Part shown: piece by piece, positions 2,939 through 47,406 of the stretch
How the letters are laid out: every line of letters starts with the position of its first letter
Position numbering within the stretch: position 1 is the first letter of the stretch
Source: Escherichia coli
Lineage (GTDB): Bacteria; Pseudomonadota; Gammaproteobacteria; Enterobacterales; Enterobacteriaceae
Length of the DNA: 64,000 nucleotides
NCBI RefSeq assembly: GCF_016026235.1
Contig: NZ_CP065613.1
Direction: 5' to 3' (one strand)
The notes under the pieces: model-generated
The model's input: the letters and a program-made list of their open reading frames with translations, nothing else
Database searches by the model: none
What the model was told of the DNA's origin: nothing
Position numbers and translations under genes: made by a program

Positions 2939-3012
2939 GCGGGCGTAGTTCAATGGTAGAACGAGAGCTTCCCAAGCTCTATACGAGGGTTCGATTCCCT
3001 TCGCCCGCTCCA
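2939..3012 (+). tRNA. glyU: tRNA-Gly (anticodon CCC)
   Basis: 74-nt sequence GCGGGCGTAGTTCAATGGTAGAACGAGAGCTTCCCAAGCTCTATACGAGGGTTCGATTCCCTTCGCCCGCTCCA; cloverleaf with anticodon loop CTTCCCAAG, T-loop GGTTCGATTCC, 3' CCA. Confidence 0.95.
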
Positions 3013-5401: not shown

Positions 5402-6163
5402 ATGATTTTAAGTGCATTTTCTCTCGAAGGTAAAGTTGCGGTCGTCACTGGCTGTGATACTGGGCTGGGCCAGGGGATGGCGTTGGGGCTGGCGCAAGCG
5501 GGCTGTGACATTGTTGGCATTAACATCGTTGAACCTACTGAAACCATCAAGCAGGTCACGGCGCTGGGGCGTCGTTTTTTAAGCCTGACCGCCGATCTGC
5601 GAAAGATTGATGGTATTCCAGCACTGCTGGATCGCGCGGTAGCGGAGTTTGGTCATATTGATATCCTGGTGAATAACGCCGGATTGATTCGCCGCGAAGA
5701 TGCTCTCGAGTTCAGCGAAAAGGACTGGGACGATGTCATGAACCTGAATATCAAGAGCGTATTCTTCATGTCTCAGGCAGCGGCGAAACACTTTATCGCG
5801 CAAGGCAATGGCGGCAAGATTATCAATATCGCGTCAATGCTCTCCTTCCAGGGCGGGATCCGTGTGCCTTCTTATACCGCATCAAAAAGCGGCGTGATGG
5901 GTGTGACGCGATTGATGGCGAACGAATGGGCTAAACACAACATTAATGTTAATGCGATAGCTCCGGGTTACATGGCGACCAACAATACTCAACAACTACG
6001 GGCAGATGAACAACGTAGCGCGGAAATTCTCGACCGCATTCCAGCTGGTCGTTGGGGACTGCCGAGTGACCTGATGGGGCCGATAGTGTTCCTTGCCTCC
6101 AACGCTTCAGATTATGTGAATGGTTATACCATTGCCGTGGATGGCGGTTGGCTGGCGCGTTAA
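5402..6163 (+). CDS. kduD: 2-dehydro-3-deoxy-D-gluconate 5-dehydrogenase (SDR family)
   Basis: 253-aa ORF with SDR glycine motif VTGCDTGLG and catalytic YxxxK (YTASK). Confidence 0.95.
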   Translation: MILSAFSLEGKVAVVTGCDTGLGQGMALGLAQAGCDIVGINIVEPTETIKQVTALGRRFLSLTADLRKIDGIPALLDRAVAEFGHIDILVNNAGLIRREDALEFSEKDWDDVMNLNIKSVFFMSQAAAKHFIAQGNGGKIINIASMLSFQGGIRVPSYTASKSGVMGVTRLMANEWAKHNINVNAIAPGYMATNNTQQLRADEQRSAEILDRIPAGRWGLPSDLMGPIVFLASNASDYVNGYTIAVDGGWLAR

Positions 6164-6185
6164 TTCATTCTTCTTACTTTTATGA

Positions 6186-6210
6186 CCCTGCCGCATGGCA
6201 GGGTTTTTTA
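6186..6210 (+). terminator. Intrinsic terminator after kduD
   Basis: Hairpin CCCTGCCGCATGGCAGGG followed by a T-run. Confidence 0.6.
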
Positions 6211-6477
6211 TACCTGTAGATCATCATAATCCATATCATGGTTATGAAATAATCCATATTAATTATCAATCAATGAACTTTATGAATTTTATCTGCTGTA
6301 AAATTAGGTGGTTAATAATAATCTCAATAATTCAACTTATTTTGAAAATTGGAATATCCATCACATAACGACATGTCGCAGCAATTTAATCCATATTTAT
6401 GCTGTTTCCGACCTGACACCTGCGTGAGTTGTTCACGTATTTTTTCACTATGTCTTACTCTCTGCTGGCAGGAAAAA

Positions 6478-7896
6478 ATGGTTACTATCAATACGGAATC
6501 TGCTTTAACGCCACGTTCTTTGCGGGATACGCGGCGTATGAATATGTTTGTTTCGGTAGCTGCTGCGGTCGCAGGATTGTTATTTGGTCTTGATATCGGC
6601 GTAATCGCCGGAGCGTTGCCGTTCATTACCGATCACTTTGTGCTGACCAGTCGTTTGCAGGAATGGGTGGTTAGTAGCATGATGCTCGGCGCAGCAATTG
6701 GTGCGCTGTTTAATGGTTGGCTGTCGTTCCGCCTGGGGCGTAAATACAGCCTGATGGCGGGGGCCATCCTGTTTGTACTCGGTTCTATAGGGTCCGCTTT
6801 TGCGACCAGCGTAGAGATGTTAATCGCCGCTCGTGTGGTGCTGGGCATTGCTGTCGGGATCGCGTCTTACACCGCTCCTCTGTATCTTTCTGAAATGGCA
6901 AGTGAAAACGTTCGCGGTAAGATGATCAGTATGTACCAGTTGATGGTCACACTCGGCATCGTGCTGGCGTTTTTATCTGATACAGCGTTCAGTTATAGCG
7001 GTAACTGGCGCGCAATGTTGGGGGTTCTTGCTTTACCAGCAGTTCTGCTGATTATTCTGGTGGTCTTCCTGCCAAATAGCCCGCGCTGGCTGGCGGAAAA
7101 GGGGCGTCATATTGAGGCGGAAGAAGTATTGCGTATGCTGCGTGATACGTCGGAAAAAGCGCGAGAAGAACTCAACGAAATTCGTGAAAGCCTGAAGTTA
7201 AAACAGGGCGGTTGGGCACTGTTTAAGATCAACCGTAACGTCCGTCGTGCTGTGTTTCTCGGTATGTTGTTGCAGGCGATGCAGCAGTTTACCGGTATGA
7301 ACATCATCATGTACTACGCGCCGCGTATCTTCAAAATGGCGGGCTTTACGACCACAGAACAACAGATGATTGCGACTCTGGTCGTAGGGCTGACCTTTAT
7401 GTTCGCCACCTTTATTGCGGTGTTTACGGTAGATAAAGCAGGGCGTAAACCGGCTCTGAAAATTGGTTTCAGCGTGATGGCGTTAGGCACTCTGGTGCTG
7501 GGCTATTGCCTGATGCAGTTTGATAACGGTACGGCTTCCAGTGGCTTGTCCTGGCTCTCTGTTGGCATGACGATGATGTGTATTGCCGGTTATGCGATGA
7601 GCGCCGCGCCAGTGGTGTGGATCCTGTGCTCTGAAATTCAGCCGCTGAAATGCCGCGATTTCGGTATTACCTGTTCGACCACCACGAACTGGGTGTCGAA
7701 TATGATCATCGGCGCGACCTTCCTGACGCTGCTCGACAGCATTGGCGCTGCCGGTACGTTCTGGCTCTACACTGCGCTGAACATTGCGTTTGTGGGCATC
7801 ACTTTCTGGCTCATTCCGGAAACCAAAAATGTCACGCTGGAACATATCGAACGCAAACTGATGGCAGGCGAGAAGTTGAGAAATATCGGCATCTGA
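6478..7896 (+). CDS. araE: Arabinose:H+ symporter (MFS sugar porter)
   Basis: ORF 6349-7896; the ATG at 6478 gives the 472-aa protein [30 protein letters not shown]..., 12-TM sugar-porter signature. Confidence 0.95.
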
Positions 7897-7902
7897 TTTC
7901 AC

Positions 7903-7935
7903 GGGCCGGATGTGCTGTACATCCGGCCCTTTTTT
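7903..7935 (+). terminator. Intrinsic terminator after araE
   Basis: GC-rich hairpin GGGCCGGATGTGCTGTACATCCGGCCC followed by TTTTTT. Confidence 0.7.
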
Positions 7936-8024
7936 CGTTAATAGAGATTGGGCACTTGGCCGTTGAGGCGTTTGTCTCGTTCCTTATTCAGCCTTGTTGC
8001 GGTAACACACATCAGGAGAGAGGA

Positions 8025-8717
8025 ATGAAAACAATTGGTTTGCTGGGAGGAATGAGCTGGGAATCCACCATTCCTTACTATCGTTTGATAAATGAAGGCA
8101 TTAAACAGCGGCTTGGTGGGCTTCACTCTGCGCAAGTGCTGCTACATAGCGTCGATTTTCATGAAATAGAAGAGTGCCAGCGTCGCGGGGAATGGGATAA
8201 AACTGGGGACATTCTGGCTGAGGCGGCGCTTGGCTTACAGCGGGCGGGCGCAGAAGGTATTGTGTTATGTACCAATACGATGCATAAAGTGGCGGATGCC
8301 ATTGAGTCACGTTGCACTCTGCCTTTCTTACACATTGCGGATGCCACCGGACGTGCAATTACCGGGGCCGGAATGACTCGTGTGGCGCTGCTGGGTACGC
8401 GTTACACCATGGAACAGGATTTTTATCGCGGGCGGCTGACGGAACAATTTTCCATCAATTGTCTTATTCCTGAAGCGGATGAACGGGCGAAAATTAATCA
8501 GATTATTTTTGAAGAACTGTGTCTGGGGCAATTTACCGAAGCGTCACGCGCTTATTATGCGCAAGTGATTGCTCGCCTTGCAGAACAGGGCGCACAGGGC
8601 GTCATTTTTGGCTGCACAGAAATTGGTTTACTGGTGCCAGAAGAGCGCAGTGTTTTGCCTGTGTTTGATACTGCGGCGATCCATGCCGAGGATGCTGTCG
8701 CTTTTATGCTGTCGTAG
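8025..8717 (+). CDS. ygeA: Asp/Glu-racemase-family amino acid racemase YgeA
   Basis: ATG at 8025 with upstream AGGAGAGAGG gives the 230-aa protein [19 protein letters not shown]...; the longer ORF from 7650 overlaps araE and is rejected. Confidence 0.9.
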
Positions 8718-9639
8718 CTGACGACAAAATAGCGTCAAGAGAAGTGACCAGTTTCGGTAACCCCGCTTGTAAATGCCCACTAAACGCCTGAACCAGCGCT
8801 GATGACGGGCGGTGCAGGGGGCGGATCAGGCTGACGGTGAACGGAACCGCAATACTGAACCGCCGCACCACTAAACCGCTTGCCGCATAATCTAGTGCGG
8901 TGAGCGGGTTAACCACCGAAACACCTACCCCCGCCCGTACCATTGCGCAGACTGACGCGGCGCTGTGGGTTTCTACGATCATGCGTCGTTTAACCTGATG
9001 TTCAGTAAATAGCTGATCCAGCAACTGGCGATAGCTGTCAGTACGGGAAAGGCTGATGTAGTTCTCACCCTGAAAATCATCCGGCGTTAATACCTTTTTT
9101 ACCGCCAGCGGATGACCCGGAGGTAACACACACACTTCATCTAAAGAGAGTAATTCGGTACGTTCTGTTCCCGCAGGCGTATGGAGCGTTTCAGTGAGTC
9201 CTAAATCATGACGCTGGGCCGAGAGCCACTCTTCAAGTAGCGGTGATTCCTGGGGCACGATATTTAAGCTGACATCGGGATAACGTGCCAGAAAGGGTTG
9301 CAGGAGCTGCGGTAAAAAAGATTGCGAAAAGACCGGCAGGCAGGCAATAGACAGTTCTCCCTGGCGAAACTCGCGCAGACTTTCTGCGGCGCTGACAATG
9401 CGATCCAGTCCGTACCAGGATCGTTGCACTTCTTCAAACAGACGCAGTCCTTGCACGGTAGGATGTAATCGTCCACGTACGCGCTCAAACAATTTCAGCC
9501 CGATCACCTTCTCAAAGCGCGCAAGTTCGCGGCTGACGGTTGGCTGTGAGGTGTGTAGCAGGTGTGCCGCCTCAGTCAGGCTTCCGGCGGTCATTACCGC
9601 ATGAAAAATTTCAATATGACGTAAGTTAACGGCGGCCAT
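8704..9639 (-). CDS. lysR: LysR-type transcriptional activator of lysA
   Basis: 311-aa ORF with N-terminal HTH ([43 protein letters not shown]); divergent from lysA. Confidence 0.95.
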
Positions 9640-12274: not shown

Positions 12275-12357
12275 CCCAGAGGTATTGATAGGTGAAGTCA
12301 ACTTCGGGTTGAGCACATGAATTACACCAGCCTGCGCAGATGCGCAGGTTTTTTTTT
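12275..12357 (+). ncRNA. omrB: OmrB small RNA (RygB)
   Basis: Begins CCCAGAGGTATTGATAGGTGA and ends in the hairpin CCTGCGCAGATGCGCAGG plus a 9-T run; lies between galR and aas; matches the OmrB sequence as I recall it. Confidence 0.85.
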
Positions 12358-12471: not shown

Positions 12472-12559
12472 CCCAGAGGTATTGATTGGTGAGATTATTC
12501 GGTACGCTCTTCGTACCCTGTCTCTTGCACCAACCTGCGCGGATGCGCAGGTTTTTTTT
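12472..12559 (+). ncRNA. omrA: OmrA small RNA (RygA)
   Basis: Begins CCCAGAGGTATTGATTGGTGAGATT and ends in CCTGCGCGGATGCGCAGG plus an 8-T run; shares 5' and 3' ends with OmrB, about 200 bp downstream. Confidence 0.85.
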
Positions 12560-25739: not shown

Positions 25740-25760
25740 TTACGAAACATCCTGCCAGAG

Positions 25761-25788
25761 CCGACGCCAGTGTGCGTCGGTTTTTTTT
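25761..25788 (+). terminator. Intrinsic terminator after thyA
   Basis: Hairpin CCGACGCCAGTGTGCGTCGG followed by eight T. Confidence 0.65.
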
Positions 25789-25923
25789 ACCCTCCGTTAA
25801 ATTCTTCGAGACGCCTTCCCGAAATTTTGCAACCTCCTGCAACGGCGTAAATAGTCCGGAAGATGCGCCGAAGAAATAGAAACTGGCCCTCGTCTTTTTT
25901 TCTCCTCGCTCCATACTGCCGGC

Positions 25924-26394
25924 ATGAAAACACAACGTGGTTATACGCTGATTGAAACGCTGGTCGCGATGCTGATTTTGGTCATGCTAAGCGCAAGTGG
26001 ACTCTATGGCTGGCAATACTGGCAGCAGTCGCAACGGCTTTGGCAAACCGCCAGCCAGGCGCGGGACTATTTGCTCTATTTACGTGAAGATGCCAACTGG
26101 CATAACCGCGACCACAGTATCAGTGTTATCAGGGAGGGGACGTTATGGTGCCTTGTGAGTTCCGTTGCTGGGGCGAATACCTGTCATGGCAGTTCACCAT
26201 TGGTCTTTGTGCCACGCTGGCCCGAAGTCGAAATGAGCGACCTGACACCTTCGCTTGCTTTCTTTGGCCTACGCAATACCGCATGGGCCGGGCATATTCG
26301 CTTCAAAAACTCAACGGGCGAGTGGTGGCTGGTGGTTTCGCCGTGGGGAAGACTCCGGCTTTGTCAGCAAGGAGAAACAGAAGGATGCCTGTGA
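25924..26394 (+). CDS. ppdA: Prepilin-peptidase-dependent pseudopilin PpdA
   Basis: 156-aa ORF with a type-IV-pilin-like N-terminus ([17 protein letters not shown]). Confidence 0.9.
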
Positions 26395-26948
26395 AAGAGC
26401 AAGGTTTTTCTCTGCTGGAAGTGTTGATTGCTATGGCGATCAGTAGCGTATTGTTGCTGGGGGCTGCACGCTTTCTGCCTGCGTTACAGCGTGAAAGTTT
26501 AACGAGCACCCGTAAGCTGGCGCTGGAAGATGAAATCTGGCTGCGGGTATTTACCGTCGCGAAGCATCTCCAGAGGGCGGGTTATTGTCATGGCAGCTGT
26601 ACCGGCGAAGGGCTGGAAATTGTCGGACAGGGTGACTGTATCATTGTGCAGTGGGATGCGAACAGTAACGGTATCTGGGATCGCGAACCGGTAAAAGAGT
26701 CCGACCAGATTGGATTTCGTCTGAAGGAGCATGTGCTGGAAACGCTACGCGGTGCGACATCCTGTGAAGGTAAGGGCTGGGATAAAGTCACTAATCCGGA
26801 TGCCATCATTATCGACACTTTTCAGGTCGTACGTCAGGATGTCAGCGGCTTCTCGCCGGTGTTGACGGTTAATATGCGTGCTGCCAGTAAGTCTGAACCG
26901 CAAACCGTGGTGAATGCCAGCTATAGCGTGACAGGATTCAACCTGTGA
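26385..26948 (+). CDS. ppdB: Prepilin-peptidase-dependent pseudopilin PpdB
   Basis: 187-aa protein from the ATG at 26385 ([24 protein letters not shown]), prepilin-like N-terminus; overlaps the ppdA end. Confidence 0.85.
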
Positions 26949-27352
26949 ACCGCGAAAAGGGTGTTTCGTCACTGGCTCTGGTCCTGATGCTGCTGGTTTT
27001 GGGTAGCTTGCTATTACAAGGAATGAGCCAACAGGATCGCAGTTTTGCCTCTCGCGTGAGCATGGAAAGTCAGTCATTGCGCCGCCAGGCCATCGTTCAG
27101 TCGGCGCTGGCGTGGGGAAAAATGCACTCCTGGCAGACGCAGCCAGCAGTTCAGTGCTCGCAGTACGCTGGAACCGATGCCCGTGTTTGTTTGCGTTTAT
27201 TGGCAGATAATGAAGCCTTATTGATTGCCGGTTATGAAGGCGTTTCGTTGTGGCGAACAGGTGAAGTCATCGATGGAAACATTGGTTTTTCGCCACGCGG
27301 CTGGAGCGATTTTTGTCCGCTGAAAGAGGGGGCGTTATGTCAGCTTCCCTGA
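26945..27352 (+). CDS. ygdB: DUF2509-type protein YgdB (pseudopilin-cluster member)
   Basis: 135-aa ORF, GTG start overlapping the ppdB stop, hydrophobic N-terminus. Confidence 0.85.
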
Positions 27353-27660
27353 AGAATCAACAAGGCTTTAGCCTGCCGGAGGTAATGTTGGCGATGGTGC
27401 TGATGGTGATGATTGTCACTGCGTTATCGGGTTTCCAGCGAACATTAATGAACAGTCTTGCCAGCAGAAACCAGTACCAACAGCTCTGGCGGCATGGTTG
27501 GCAGCAAACGCAACTGCGCGCGATTTCGCCACCTGCCAACTGGCAGGTCAACCGAATGCAGACATCGCAGGCGGGATGTGTCAGCATCAGCGTTACGCTA
27601 GTTTCACCCGGGGGCAGAGAAGGCGAGATGACCCGCCTGCATTGCCCGAATCGTCAGTAG
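27337..27660 (+). CDS. ppdC: Prepilin-peptidase-dependent pseudopilin PpdC
   Basis: 107-aa protein from the ATG at 27337 ([27 protein letters not shown]), prepilin-like N-terminus. Confidence 0.8.
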
Positions 27661-27672
27661 TCAGGAGCCGCT

Positions 27673-30600
27673 ATGTTAAGGGTCTACCATTCCAATCGTC
27701 TGGACGTGCTGGAAGCGTTGATGGAGTTTATTGTCGAACGCGAACGGCTGGACGATCCTTTCGAACCAGAGATGATTCTGGTGCAAAGTACCGGTATGGC
27801 ACAGTGGCTGCAAATGACCCTGTCGCAAAAGTTTGGTATTGCGGCAAACATTGATTTTCCGCTGCCTGCGAGCTTTATCTGGGATATGTTCGTCCGGGTG
27901 TTACCGGAGATCCCCAAAGAGAGCGCCTTTAACAAACAGAGCATGAGCTGGAAACTGATGACTCTGCTGCCGCAATTGCTGGAGCGCGAAGACTTTACCC
28001 TGTTGCGGCATTATCTGACTGACGATAGCGACAAGCGAAAGCTGTTCCAGCTTTCCTCAAAAGCGGCGGACCTGTTTGACCAGTATCTGGTCTATCGTCC
28101 GGACTGGCTGGCACAGTGGGAAACAGGACATTTGGTTGAAGGGCTGGGAGAGGCACAGGCCTGGCAAGCGCCGTTGTGGAAGGCGCTGGTGGAATATACA
28201 CATGAACTCGGACAACCGCGTTGGCACCGCGCCAATCTCTATCAGCGCTTTATCGAAACGCTGGAGTCCGCGACGACCTGCCCGCCGGGGTTACCTTCGC
28301 GCGTCTTTATATGCGGTATTTCCGCGTTACCGCCTGTTTATCTCCAGGCGCTCCAGGCGCTGGGTAAACATATTGAAATCCATCTCCTGTTTACCAACCC
28401 CTGCCGTTATTACTGGGGCGATATTAAAGATCCTGCTTATCTGGCGAAACTGCTGACCCGTCAGCGTCGACACAGTTTTGAAGATCGCGAATTGCCGCTA
28501 TTTCGCGATAGCGAAAATGCCGGACAGCTCTTTAACAGCGATGGTGAACAGGATGTCGGCAACCCGCTGCTGGCTTCATGGGGTAAGCTTGGGCGCGACT
28601 ACATTTATCTCCTTTCTGATCTGGAGAGCAGCCAGGAGCTGGACGCTTTTGTCGATGTCACGCCAGATAACCTGCTGCATAACATTCAGTCTGACATTCT
28701 GGAACTGGAAAACCGCGCCGTTGCTGGTGTGAACATCGAAGAGTTTTCCCGTAGCGATAACAAACGCCCGCTTGATCCACTGGATAGCAGTATCACCTTC
28801 CACGTTTGCCATAGCCCGCAGCGTGAAGTTGAAGTTTTGCACGATCGCCTGCTGGCGATGCTGGAGGAAGACCCGACACTTGCTCCGCGCGACATCATCG
28901 TGATGGTGGCCGACATCGACAGCTACAGTCCGTTTATTCAGGCAGTGTTTGGTAGCGCACCTGCGGATCGTTACCTGCCTTACGCCATTTCCGACCGTCG
29001 TGCGCGGCAGTCACATCCGGTACTGGAAGCGTTTATCAGCCTGTTATCACTGCCTGACAGTCGCTTTGTGTCAGAGGATGTGCTGGCGCTGCTGGATGTG
29101 CCGGTGCTGGCGGCGCGGTTTGACATCACCGAAGAAGGGCTGCGTTATTTACGCCAGTGGGTCAACGAGTCCGGCATTCGTTGGGGCATAGATGACGACA
29201 ACGTTCGCGAGCTGGAACTCCCCGCCACCGGACAACACACCTGGCGATTTGGCCTGACGCGTATGTTGTTGGGCTACGCGATGGAGAGCGCGCAGGGCGA
29301 GTGGCAATCGGTTCTACCTTATGATGAATCGAGCGGCTTAATTGCAGAACTGGTGGGGCATCTGGCTTCACTGCTAATGCAGCTAAACATCTGGCGTCGC
29401 GGGCTGGCACAGGAGCGTCCGCTGGAAGAGTGGTTGCCGGTTTGTCGCGATATGCTCAACGCCTTCTTCCTGCCGGATGCGGAAACCGAAGCGGCGATGA
29501 CGCTGATCGAACAACAATGGCAGGCGATTATCGCCGAAGGTTTAGGTGCGCAGTATGGCGATGCGGTGCCGCTGTCACTATTGCGTGATGAACTGGCACA
29601 GCGCCTGGATCACGAACGTATCAGCCAGCGTTTTCTCGCCGGGCCTGTTAACATTTGTACTCTGATGCCAATGCGTTCAATTCCGTTCAAAGTGGTTTGC
29701 CTGCTGGGAATGAACGACGGCGTTTATCCACGTCAGCTTGCGCCATTGGGCTTTGACCTGATGAGCCAGAAACCGAAGCGTGGCGACCGTAGCCGTCGCG
29801 ATGACGACCGCTACCTGTTCCTGGAAGCGTTAATTTCCGCGCAGCAAAAACTCTATATCAGCTATATCGGGCGTTCCATTCAGGATAACAGTGAACGTTT
29901 CCCGTCGGTACTGGTGCAGGAACTGATCGACTACATCGGGCAAAGTCATTATCTACCGGGCGATGAAGCGCTCAACTGTGATGAAAGCGAGGCAAGGGTA
30001 AAAGCGCATCTTACTTGCCTCCATACCCGGATGCCGTTTGATCCACAAAACTACCAGCCAGGCGAACGACAAAGCTATGCTCGTGAATGGCTACCTGCGG
30101 CCAGCCAGGCTGGTAAAGCACATTCTGAATTTGTTCAGCCGCTGCCGTTTACCTTACCGGAAACCGTGCCGCTGGAAACGCTACAACGATTCTGGGCACA
30201 TCCGGTGCGGGCGTTCTTCCAGATGCGTTTGCAGGTGAACTTCCGTACTGAAGACAGCGAAATCCCCGACACCGAGCCATTTATTCTGGAAGGACTTAGC
30301 CGTTATCAAATCAATCAGCAGTTATTGAATGCACTGGTTGAGCAGGATGATGCCGAACGCTTGTTCCGTCGCTTCCGGGCGGCAGGGGATTTACCGTATG
30401 GCGCTTTTGGTGAAATTTTCTGGGAAACACAGTGCCAGGAGATGCAGCAGCTTGCCGACAGAGTCATTGCCTGTCGCCAGCCGGGGCAGAGTATGGAAAT
30501 TGATCTCGCCTGCAACGGTGTGCAGATAACTGGCTGGTTGCCGCAGGTGCAGCCGGATGGCTTGTTGCGCTGGCGTCCCTCTTTATTAAGTGTGGCGCAG

Positions 30601-31041
30601 GGAATGCAACTTTGGCTGGAACACCTTGTCTACTGTGCCAGCGGTGGTAATGGTGAAAGTCGCCTTTTTCTACGCAAAGACGGCGAGTGGCGTTTTCCGC
30701 CGCTTGCAGCCGAACAGGCTTTGCATTACCTCTCACAACTGATTGAGGGGTATCGTGAAGGGATGTCCGCGCCATTGCTGGTGTTACCTGAAAGTGGCGG
30801 CGCGTGGCTAAAAACCTGTTATGACGCGCAAAACGATGCCATGCTGGATGACGATTCCACGTTGCAAAAAGCCCGTACGAAATTCCTTCAGGCTTACGAA
30901 GGCAACATGATGGTGCGTGGCGAAGGTGATGATATCTGGTATCAAAGGCTCTGGCGGCAATTAACACCAGAGACAATGGAGGCAATCGTTGAACAGTCGC
31001 AACGTTTCCTGTTACCGCTGTTTCGCTTTAATCAGTCATGA
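27673..31041 (+). CDS. recC: Exodeoxyribonuclease V gamma subunit RecC
   Basis: 1122-aa ORF starting 13 bp after ppdC; synteny recC-ptrA-recB-recD. Confidence 0.95.
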   Translation: MLRVYHSNRLDVLEALMEFIVERERLDDPFEPEMILVQSTGMAQWLQMTLSQKFGIAANIDFPLPASFIWDMFVRVLPEIPKESAFNKQSMSWKLMTLLPQLLEREDFTLLRHYLTDDSDKRKLFQLSSKAADLFDQYLVYRPDWLAQWETGHLVEGLGEAQAWQAPLWKALVEYTHELGQPRWHRANLYQRFIETLESATTCPPGLPSRVFICGISALPPVYLQALQALGKHIEIHLLFTNPCRYYWGDIKDPAYLAKLLTRQRRHSFEDRELPLFRDSENAGQLFNSDGEQDVGNPLLASWGKLGRDYIYLLSDLESSQELDAFVDVTPDNLLHNIQSDILELENRAVAGVNIEEFSRSDNKRPLDPLDSSITFHVCHSPQREVEVLHDRLLAMLEEDPTLAPRDIIVMVADIDSYSPFIQAVFGSAPADRYLPYAISDRRARQSHPVLEAFISLLSLPDSRFVSEDVLALLDVPVLAARFDITEEGLRYLRQWVNESGIRWGIDDDNVRELELPATGQHTWRFGLTRMLLGYAMESAQGEWQSVLPYDESSGLIAELVGHLASLLMQLNIWRRGLAQERPLEEWLPVCRDMLNAFFLPDAETEAAMTLIEQQWQAIIAEGLGAQYGDAVPLSLLRDELAQRLDHERISQRFLAGPVNICTLMPMRSIPFKVVCLLGMNDGVYPRQLAPLGFDLMSQKPKRGDRSRRDDDRYLFLEALISAQQKLYISYIGRSIQDNSERFPSVLVQELIDYIGQSHYLPGDEALNCDESEARVKAHLTCLHTRMPFDPQNYQPGERQSYAREWLPAASQAGKAHSEFVQPLPFTLPETVPLETLQRFWAHPVRAFFQMRLQVNFRTEDSEIPDTEPFILEGLSRYQINQQLLNALVEQDDAERLFRRFRAAGDLPYGAFGEIFWETQCQEMQQLADRVIACRQPGQSMEIDLACNGVQITGWLPQVQPDGLLRWRPSLLSVAQGMQLWLEHLVYCASGGNGESRLFLRKDGEWRFPPLAAEQALHYLSQLIEGYREGMSAPLLVLPESGGAWLKTCYDAQNDAMLDDDSTLQKARTKFLQAYEGNMMVRGEGDDIWYQRLWRQLTPETMEAIVEQSQRFLLPLFRFNQS

Positions 31042-42417: not shown

Positions 42418-42494
<77 letters not shown>

Positions 42495-42528
42495 TCACCG
42501 TACTGCTTTTACTTCATCAAATTTTGAT

Positions 42529-42605
<77 letters not shown>

Positions 42606-42648
42606 TCACCGTACTGCTTTACTTCATCAAATTTTAATTGGTTGCGGG

Positions 42649-42725
<77 letters not shown>

Positions 42726-44108: not shown

Positions 44109-44207
44109 TGCCGGATGCGGCGTGAACGCCTTATCCAGCCTACAAATCATGCAAATCCAAAATATTGCAGGAGTTATGTAGGCCTGATAAGCGTAGCGCA
44201 TCAGGCA
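44109..44207. repeat. BIME-like pair of inverted REP elements
   Basis: GCCGGATGCGGCGTGAACGCCTTATCCAGCCTACA and TGTAGGCCTGATAAGCGTAGCGCATCAGGCA in opposite orientation; the segment is flanked by an 18-bp direct repeat (44057-44074 and 44219-44236). Confidence 0.6.
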
Positions 44208-47200: not shown

Positions 47201-47406
47201 AAAAAAAAGCACCGCAATTAGGCGGTGCTACATTAATCACTATGGACAGACAGGGTAAATGTACAGGAAGTGAAAAAAGGTAGCTTTGCTACCATGGTCT
47301 GAATCGCAGACCAATTGCAAACACAACAACACAACATCACAACCGTAAGCCAAAAGTTCACCAGAACACGCATTCCGATAAAACTTTTCGTTCCGGCTCA
47401 GGAAGT
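47201..47406 (-). ncRNA. gcvB: GcvB small RNA
   Basis: Minus-strand sequence begins ACTTCCTGAGCCGGAACGAAAAG..., contains the G/U-rich stretch GTTGTGATGTTGTGTTGTTGTGTTTG and ends in the hairpin AGCACCGCCTAATTGCGGTGCT plus a T-run; divergent from gcvA. Confidence 0.85.

Follow-up and report, generated by a model that had tools for sequence, protein, structure and literature searches.

We have analyzed a window of 64,000 nucleotides of Escherichia coli DNA (contig NZ_CP065613.1 of assembly GCF_016026235.1) in which four short genes, ppdA, ppdB, ygdB and ppdC, occupy positions 25924 to 27660, on the plus strand and directly upstream of recC. The first, ppdA (25924..26394; ATG start, 156 amino acids), encodes an H-type (FimU/GspH-like) minor prepilin with the cleavage motif QRG/YTLIE, the slash marking the cut. 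It is followed by ppdB (26385..26948; ATG, 187 amino acids), for a J-type (PilW/GspJ-like) minor prepilin with EQG/FSLLE; by ygdB (26945..27352; GTG, 135 amino acids), for a DUF2509 minor pilin that lacks Glu5 and would hold the K-type (PilX/GspK-like) position; and by ppdC (27337..27660; ATG, 107 amino acids), for an I-type (PilV/GspI-like) minor prepilin with QQG/FSLPE. These gene names and coordinates, already given in a preliminary description of this DNA made without database searches, agree with the list of open reading frames (ORFs) and with RefSeq, where an E. coli record of identical sequence (FDAARGOS_943) is annotated with ppdA, ppdB, ygdB, ppdC and recC at exactly matching boundaries.

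The genes are tightly packed. According to the ORF list and direct reading of the sequence, ppdA and ppdB overlap by 10 nucleotides (nt), ppdB and ygdB by 4 nt, and ygdB and ppdC by 16 nt, as expected from the 4 to 16 bp claimed beforehand. The downstream neighbor and possible read-through partner, recC (27673..31041, plus strand; an ORF of 1122 amino acids for the gamma subunit of RecBCD), begins after a 12-nt spacer, TC AGGAG CCGCT, the sole content of which is the recC Shine-Dalgarno sequence AGGAG (27663..27667, plus strand), 2 nt past the ppdC stop and 5 nt ahead of the ATG. The figure of 13 bp in the preliminary description is this same distance counted as an offset. The base composition of the cluster is native, with a GC content of 0.52-0.55 compared to 0.515 for the window.

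The four proteins as minor pilins

Prepilins were recognized by a hidden Markov model (HMM) score above the curated cutoff, together with a short, basic leader whose last residue is Gly(-1), followed by a hydrophobic +1 residue, Glu+5 and a hydrophobic helix about 20 residues long. By direct reading the N-termini are MKTQRG/YTLIE in PpdA, MPVKEQG/FSLLE in PpdB, QQG/FSLPE in PpdC and MNREKG/VSSLA in YgdB. A search for a prepilin peptidase cleavage site in each ORF, as had been proposed, finds the Gly-1 motif in all four and Glu+5 in three. The Pfam model PF07963 (N_methyl, cutoff 21.2 bits) is passed by PpdA (30.0), PpdB (35.4) and PpdC (28.6), and TIGR02532 (cutoff 16.3) is passed by the same three proteins, with 24.3, 29.5 and 24.5 bits, respectively. 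YgdB matches neither N_methyl nor TIGR02532; its Gly-1 and hydrophobic helix are in place, and its residue at +5 is Ala. The earlier statement that all four ORFs have prepilin-like N-termini is accurate for PpdA, PpdB and PpdC, which are canonical, but has to be qualified for YgdB, which lacks Glu5 and fails the N_methyl model.

All four proteins score well above the cutoffs of their NCBIfam equivalogs: PpdA with PRK10506 (249.5 bits, cutoff 158), PpdB with PRK10557 (327.6, cutoff 120), YgdB with PRK11521 (252.5, cutoff 159) and PpdC with PRK10332 (217.3, cutoff 86). In addition, PpdC matches PF12528 (T2SSppdC) at 107 bits and YgdB matches the Pfam family DUF2509. The HMM comparison with pilin families that had been suggested was favorable as regards N_methyl in three of the proteins, but not as regards the models for GspH (TIGR01708, 18.4 bits, cutoff 80), GspJ (TIGR01711, 21.1, cutoff 64.85), GspI (TIGR01707, 16.3, cutoff 44.35) and GspK (NF037980, 14.3, cutoff 130). 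Because these matches are N-terminal and far under cutoff, the four proteins are not members of the Gsp families by the curated models.

The fold of PpdB is that of a J-type minor pilin and resembles the subunits GspJ, XcpW and EpsJ. YgdB lacks the insertion domain of GspK and is a compact pilin, much smaller than K-type subunits usually are. Its family is small, comprising 111 of the 50%-identity clusters in a set of 1.84 billion representatives, and an alignment of 58 members conserves the Gly at -1, four cysteines and a W..GW.DFCP motif, with Glu at +5 in none. YgdB would function as a pilin even though it fails the motif model, and the Glu5 exception is common to the K-type proteins GspK and PilX. 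The absence of Glu5 also agrees with a published table of equivalences, in which PpdA corresponds to FimU and GspH, PpdC to PilV and GspI, PpdB to PilW and GspJ, and YgdB to PilX and GspK (PMC7248040). A sequence search of the PDB returned a single marginal match, of PpdB to TTHA1219 (E = 0.04), and none of the four proteins matched a PADLOC defence-system model at E <= 0.01. Five database proteins of 211-237 amino acids (P0007, P0018, P0036, P0038 and P0112) join DUF2509, N_methyl and PF12528; these are YgdB-PpdC fusions, presumably produced by frameshifts or by gene calling across the 16-nt overlap.

Conservation and linkage to recC

Of 5426 complete E. coli genomes, 5425 carry the cluster at no less than 95% identity. 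An allele at least 99% identical to the one described here occurs in 57 of the 5425, the remainder being 95-99% identical, so the cluster varies noticeably within E. coli. To look beyond the species, a set of 15 YgdB sequences was used as query against one genome per species; the survey reached Enterobacteriaceae only and yielded 80 loci in about 20 genera. The order thyA-ppdA-ppdB-ygdB-ppdC-recC is found in all of them. The junctions are nearly as uniform as the order: ppdA and ppdB overlap by 10 nt in 54 loci and by 7 nt in 18, ppdB and ygdB by 4 nt in 77 of 81, and ygdB and ppdC by 16 nt in 80 of 81, while the gap between ppdC and recC is 12 nt in 66 of 81, with a consensus across genera of TAG-TC-[AG]GGAG-N5-ATG. 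This arrangement is far beyond chance.

The proteins encoded by this constant framework diverge rapidly. Identity across genera is 45-75% for the pilins, compared to 91-100% for ThyA and 74-97% for RecC, and the ratio of nonsynonymous to synonymous substitution rates (dN/dS) is 0.07-0.34 for the pilin genes, 0.01-0.02 for thyA and 0.03-0.08 for recC. Judged from these alignments, the ppd genes are fast-diverging yet under purifying selection, with frames intact in 80 species.

Eight further, more distant DUF2509 homologues were looked up for linkage to recC. Five have recC directly downstream, with gaps of 12-204 nt, and one locus (L085) lies on a short contig that is uninformative on this point. 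On a metagenomic Enterobacterales-like scaffold (L088), ppdC and recC are split by 3.8 kb (5719-9528) with a GC content of 0.42, in which neither an ORF of at least 90 amino acids nor an Rfam match was found; this may be a decayed insertion. The cluster and recC are unlinked in two loci, L002 (GCA_045014155.1, 4984-6748) and L087 (GCA_011745665.1, 3942-5757), where the neighbors are epmA-like and rmuC genes upstream and either rhlB-trxA-rho or mdh downstream. The linkage in five distant loci, together with its absence in these two, indicates that it is old and widespread and not obligatory. In L002 the first gene of the cluster is also preceded, at a distance of about 90 nt, by a good CRP-S-like site, TTTTGCGTATTGGCTAGCAAAA.

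Control regions of ppdA and recC

Upstream of ppdA, past the end of thyA (25739), lies an intrinsic terminator (25757..25788, plus strand) with an 11-bp stem, a 6-nt loop and a T-run (RNA fold -16.6 kcal/mol, z = -2.9); stem and T-run are kept in the multi-genus alignment. With a terminator hairpin of this strength, the ppd operon would be isolated from thyA transcription. The region from there to ppdA (25789..25923, plus strand) contains the presumed ppdA promoter and several blocks that are conserved across genera in a 68-sequence alignment. A promoter scan found no consensus sigma-70 promoter on the plus strand of this region. The sequence TGCGA-N6-TCGCA does not occur between thyA and ppdA at up to two mismatches, and its window-wide counts are under the shuffle expectation; a weighted CRP scan likewise gave nothing above background in the ppdA promoter. 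The conserved block T[TG]CG[AG]-N6-TTCC (25805..25820, plus strand) is a weak CRP-S-type candidate: in E. coli it reads TTCGA-N6-TTCCC and matches 7 of 10 core positions by direct reading, which alone has no statistical significance, and some genera (L050, L079) have the exact left half TGCGA at this block.

The best-conserved intergenic block across the approximately 20 genera is a direct repeat, TGCAAC-CTCC-TGCAAC (25828..25843, plus strand), with a 10-bp period and a column conservation of about 0.9 or higher; it is the only exact match to this sequence in the 64-kb window. On the minus strand it reads GTTGCAgg-ag-GTTGCAaa. Descriptions of CytR half-sites give TGCAA/GTTGCATT and include octamers repeated directly with a short spacer between them (PMC3454398). 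The TGCAAC-N4-TGCAA repeat resembles these half-sites and is a candidate only. The CytR assignment is weakened in that no link between CytR and ppdA was found in the literature searched, the ppd genes are unmentioned in a comparative study of CytR (PMC3454398), and no convincing pair of CRP sites flanks the repeat. Three other identities considered for the repeat were rejected by eye: its symmetry is wrong for a CRP site, a sigma-54 promoter would need a GG that is missing and a spacing different by one, and a -35 element was likewise discarded. A sigma-28-like sequence, TAAATAGT-N11-GCCGAAGA (25848-25874), fits in E. coli, but its -10 part is unconserved across genera.

Closer to ppdA, a CTCG[TC][CA] block (25889..25894, plus strand) occupies the -35 position, and a -10-like hexamer, CATACT (25912..25917, plus strand; xAxAxT in general form), is separated from the ppdA ATG by a GC-rich spacer of 6 nt. 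The distance from this hexamer (CATACT or CACACT) to the invariant ATG is 6 nt in 70 of 78 sequences and 7 nt in the other 8, and the same layout recurs in the distant Enterobacterales loci L084, L087 and L089. Of 80 species, 73 show no Shine-Dalgarno-like match ahead of ppdA; for ppdB, ppdC and recC there is one. A -10-like hexamer 6 nt before the ATG, combined with the lack of a Shine-Dalgarno sequence, constitutes a leaderless geometry, and suggests that the ppdA mRNA is leaderless and starts at the A of the ATG.

From ppdA to recC the promoter and terminator scan detected no terminator signal above background, terminator-like matches being at chance level; the same scan overlooked the thyA terminator, although this is clear and was confirmed by folding. 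With no terminator and a gap of just 12 nt, transcription from the ppd promoter very probably reads through into recC. The ppdAB-ygdB-ppdC-recC genes have been treated as a polycistronic operon, with similar mRNA half-lives for all cistrons (PMC3936743). On the other hand, ordinarily growing cells contain about 5 RecC molecules each, and recC is stated to have its own promoter (PMC6536506); since the ppd genes are silent in such growth, recC appears to be independent of the ppd promoter. The co-transcription with recC proposed in the preliminary description is thus borne out to the extent that no terminator intervenes, the gap is short and the genes have been listed as an operon, but it does not account for RecC being made while the ppd genes are silent.

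No DNA of the operon is more conserved (0.98) than a stretch inside ppdC. It covers codons 75-84 (27559..27588, plus strand) and consists of CAGACA at 27559-27564, 12 variable nucleotides, and TGTGTCAGCATC at 27577-27588. Codon usage was examined in 76 species at the 117 columns of the four genes that have synonymous alternatives and an amino acid conserved to 95% or more. The share of the commonest codon has a median of 0.55 over these columns, and a single codon is used in all 76 species at only six of them, which are exactly ppdC codons 75, 76 and 81-84. The exact motif is present in 77 of 84 loci and a one-base variant in 3 more; in 70 it is located 114 nt 5' of the recC ATG. It was not found in four distant loci, three of which (L003, L086 and L089) have a longer gap between ppdC and recC, while L084 keeps the 12-nt gap. 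The longer gaps of L003 (6731-6807) and L086 (5716-5834) both contain GATTTGCAA-N16-TA[CA]AGTGTT, with the core TTGCAA-N16-TA[CA]AGT, which by its sequence would be a canonical recC promoter where the gap is uncompressed.

Read as a promoter, the ppdC element has a -35 hexamer (4 of 6 positions), a 17-bp spacer and a TGTG-extended -10 hexamer, CAGCAT, with a predicted start near 27594-27596. In Enterobacteriaceae, ppdC codons 75-84 probably hold recC's own constitutive promoter, and this candidate may already have been mapped in earlier literature. Other explanations for the constraint were considered less likely than a sense promoter: an antisense promoter would have its -10 in the unconserved codons 73-74, the constraint is too local for an overlapping ORF in an alternative frame, and a hairpin at this position would have only 4 bp.

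Elsewhere in the window, gathering-score matches to Rfam families were obtained for two copies of the OmrA/OmrB small RNAs (12275-12356 and 12472-12559, plus strand), GcvB (47201-47406, minus strand) and ES036 (CssrF; 44143-44185, plus strand), all of which are ordinary E. coli features. The window also contains a tRNA-Gly(CCC) gene (2939-3012, plus strand) and three tandem tRNA-Met(CAT) genes (42418-42715, minus strand).

Function, alternatives and comparison with known systems

This region is very probably the E. coli core operon for the core set of four minor pilins that belong to the cryptic type IVa pilus with PpdD as its major subunit, normally off and switched on by Sxy (TfoX) together with CRP, with read-through into a recC gene that has its own promoter. 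According to this interpretation, PpdA, PpdB, YgdB and PpdC would each be synthesized as a prepilin whose short, basic leader has Gly as its last residue, and the overlaps of 10, 4 and 16 nt would couple the translation of the four genes. Judging from the motifs, prepilin peptidase would then cut the leader and N-methylate the new N-terminus. The four proteins are expected, on the basis of cited experiments, to form a tip or priming complex in the inner membrane that starts polymerisation of the filament. The ppd genes would be off by default and turned on by Sxy (TfoX) with CRP, as part of a competence-type regulon.

Much of this has precedent. Deletion of the minor-pilin genes in enterohaemorrhagic E. 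coli (EHEC) led to strong defects in pilus assembly (Luna Rico 2019, as cited in PMC7248040), and PpdAB-YgdB-PpdC prime assembly of PulG in a pulHIJK mutant (Cisneros 2012, as cited in PMC5131608). A synthetic E. coli pilus chassis uses the four genes as its minor-pilin module (10.1101/856302). A 2025 paper cites induction of the ppd genes by Sxy, with ppdA responding most strongly (PMC12616744). In a 2006 study the E. coli genes were taken as orthologues of Haemophilus influenzae pulG-HI0941 and their adjacency to recC was noted (PMC1635313), as it was again in 2025 for comNOPQ and ppdAB-ygdB-ppdC (PMC12616744). Sinha and Redfield (2012) found the regulon uninduced in every laboratory condition tried, save artificial expression of sxy (PMC3330819). 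With a published role in pilin priming, induction by Sxy and synteny with recC, the view that the function of the cluster is poorly characterised is not borne out; it is out of date, the literature giving a core minor-pilin role, filament priming and Sxy induction.

Several observations weigh against this interpretation. A canonical CRP-S site is missing from the ppdA promoter, so the input of Sxy and CRP is taken from the cited papers. The HMM matches to GspH, GspI, GspJ and GspK are confined to the N-termini and are all under cutoff. Linkage to recC is absent in the two AT-rich genomes of 2.4-2.6 Mb represented by L002 and L087. Both read-through into recC and an internal recC promoter are what we infer from the DNA itself, and the invariant synonymous C's at 27582, 27585 and 27588 depart from the sigma-70 consensus; in view of these three non-consensus positions, the sequence could be, or could also include, an RNA element or a specific factor's site.

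Three other explanations were weighed against a minor-pilin operon with an independently expressed recC. In one of them recC is an obligate fifth gene, and RecC synthesis needs the ppd promoter and translational coupling to ppdC. The 12-nt gap without a terminator, the conserved junction of stop, Shine-Dalgarno sequence and start, and the listing of ppdAB-ygdB-ppdC-recC with similar half-lives of its cistrons (PMC3936743) all speak for it. However, RecC is present and functional in ordinary cultures (PMC6536506), in which the Sxy regulon is off (PMC3330819). An invariant promoter-like element lies in ppdC 114 nt 5' of recC, relatives with longer gaps carry TTGCAA-N16-TAnAGT in the gap, and the pilin cluster and recC are unlinked in two genomes. 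We therefore regard an obligate dependence of recC on the ppd genes as improbable.

The four proteins could also be type II secretion system (T2SS) pseudopilins, paralogues of GspH, GspI, GspJ and GspK that serve secretion and have no role in a type IV pilus. The weak N-terminal HMM matches of PpdA to GspH, PpdB to GspJ and YgdB to GspK point in that direction, as do the Pfam name of PF12528 ("Type II secretion prepilin peptidase dependent protein C"), the likeness of the PpdB fold to GspJ, XcpW and EpsJ, and the heterologous priming of a T2SS pseudopilus by the ppd proteins, as cited in PMC5131608. We nevertheless consider a secretion role of this kind very improbable. Hardly any credence is due to the idea that the cluster is a silent, decaying relic kept merely through its position between thyA and recC. 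It would accord with a regulon that is uninduced in any laboratory condition (PMC3330819) and with proteins that evolve 5-10 times faster than ThyA and RecC, but the dN/dS values are well under 1, the promoter blocks are conserved, and frames, lengths, overlaps, cleavage motifs and cysteines are kept in 80 species and 5425 E. coli genomes; reconstituted systems, as reported in PMC7248040 and PMC5131608, moreover showed function.

The genes, their pilin nature, the priming of assembly, the control by Sxy and the adjacency to recC are all already in the literature; the close packing against recC does exist, dates far back and has been described before, so that the finding is ordinary. What may be undescribed is a combined interpretation of the packing as an overlapping regulatory code. 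It has four parts: a promoter or control element of recC in ppdC codons 75-84, where every synonymous site is invariant in about 20 genera; a leaderless ppdA mRNA from an activator-dependent promoter; a CytR-type GTTGCA-N4-GTTGCA repeat at that promoter; and Sxy-induced read-through that would raise RecC over RecB and RecD during DNA uptake. That all four parts hold together is unlikely, but the ppdC element, the leaderless ppdA message and the CytR-like repeat are testable leads on a known system. A control element of recC in the ppdC codons, if real, would constrain the recoding or deletion of ppdC and would be relevant to the dosage of RecBCD. A true CytR-type repeat would tie a cryptic DNA-uptake pilus to the nucleoside-scavenging regulon, fitting the idea of "DNA as food"; it could point to the missing natural inducing signal and would thus be relevant to studies of competence in E. 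coli. As it stands, the cluster is maintained and evolves fast, and is best seen as belonging to a competence-type machine; it is neither an uncharacterised curiosity nor an accessory of RecBCD.

The closest known system is the ppdA-ppdB-ygdB-ppdC cluster (b2826-b2823) of the PpdD (HCP) pilus in E. coli K-12 and EHEC, which has identical order, boundaries and thyA and recC neighbors. Compared with K-12-like records the window differs by about 1%, as another strain's allele, with no difference of substance. In H. influenzae, the positional counterpart comNOPQ (HI0938-HI0941) likewise comprises four similar-sized, co-oriented prepilin-peptidase-dependent genes directly 5' of recC, and both clusters are reported to be induced by Sxy, the first gene most (PMC1635313, PMC12616744). 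The E. coli promoter differs from that of the CRP-S/Sxy-regulated comNOPQ in having no canonical CRP-S site. From the GspH-GspI-GspJ-GspK set of the T2SS the ppd proteins are distinguished by falling short of the curated HMM cutoffs, by belonging to a pilus or competence regulon and by lying apart from the gsp operon. Pseudomonas aeruginosa fimU-pilVWX and Neisseria pilHIJK are likewise clusters of four H/I/J/K minor pilins, one without Glu5, that are needed to start assembly (PMC7248040). In contrast to these sets, the E. coli cluster has no adjacent pilY1 or pilE partners and its YgdB is much smaller; the order of the subunits is H-J-K-I in E. coli and H-I-J-K as listed in the table of PMC7248040.

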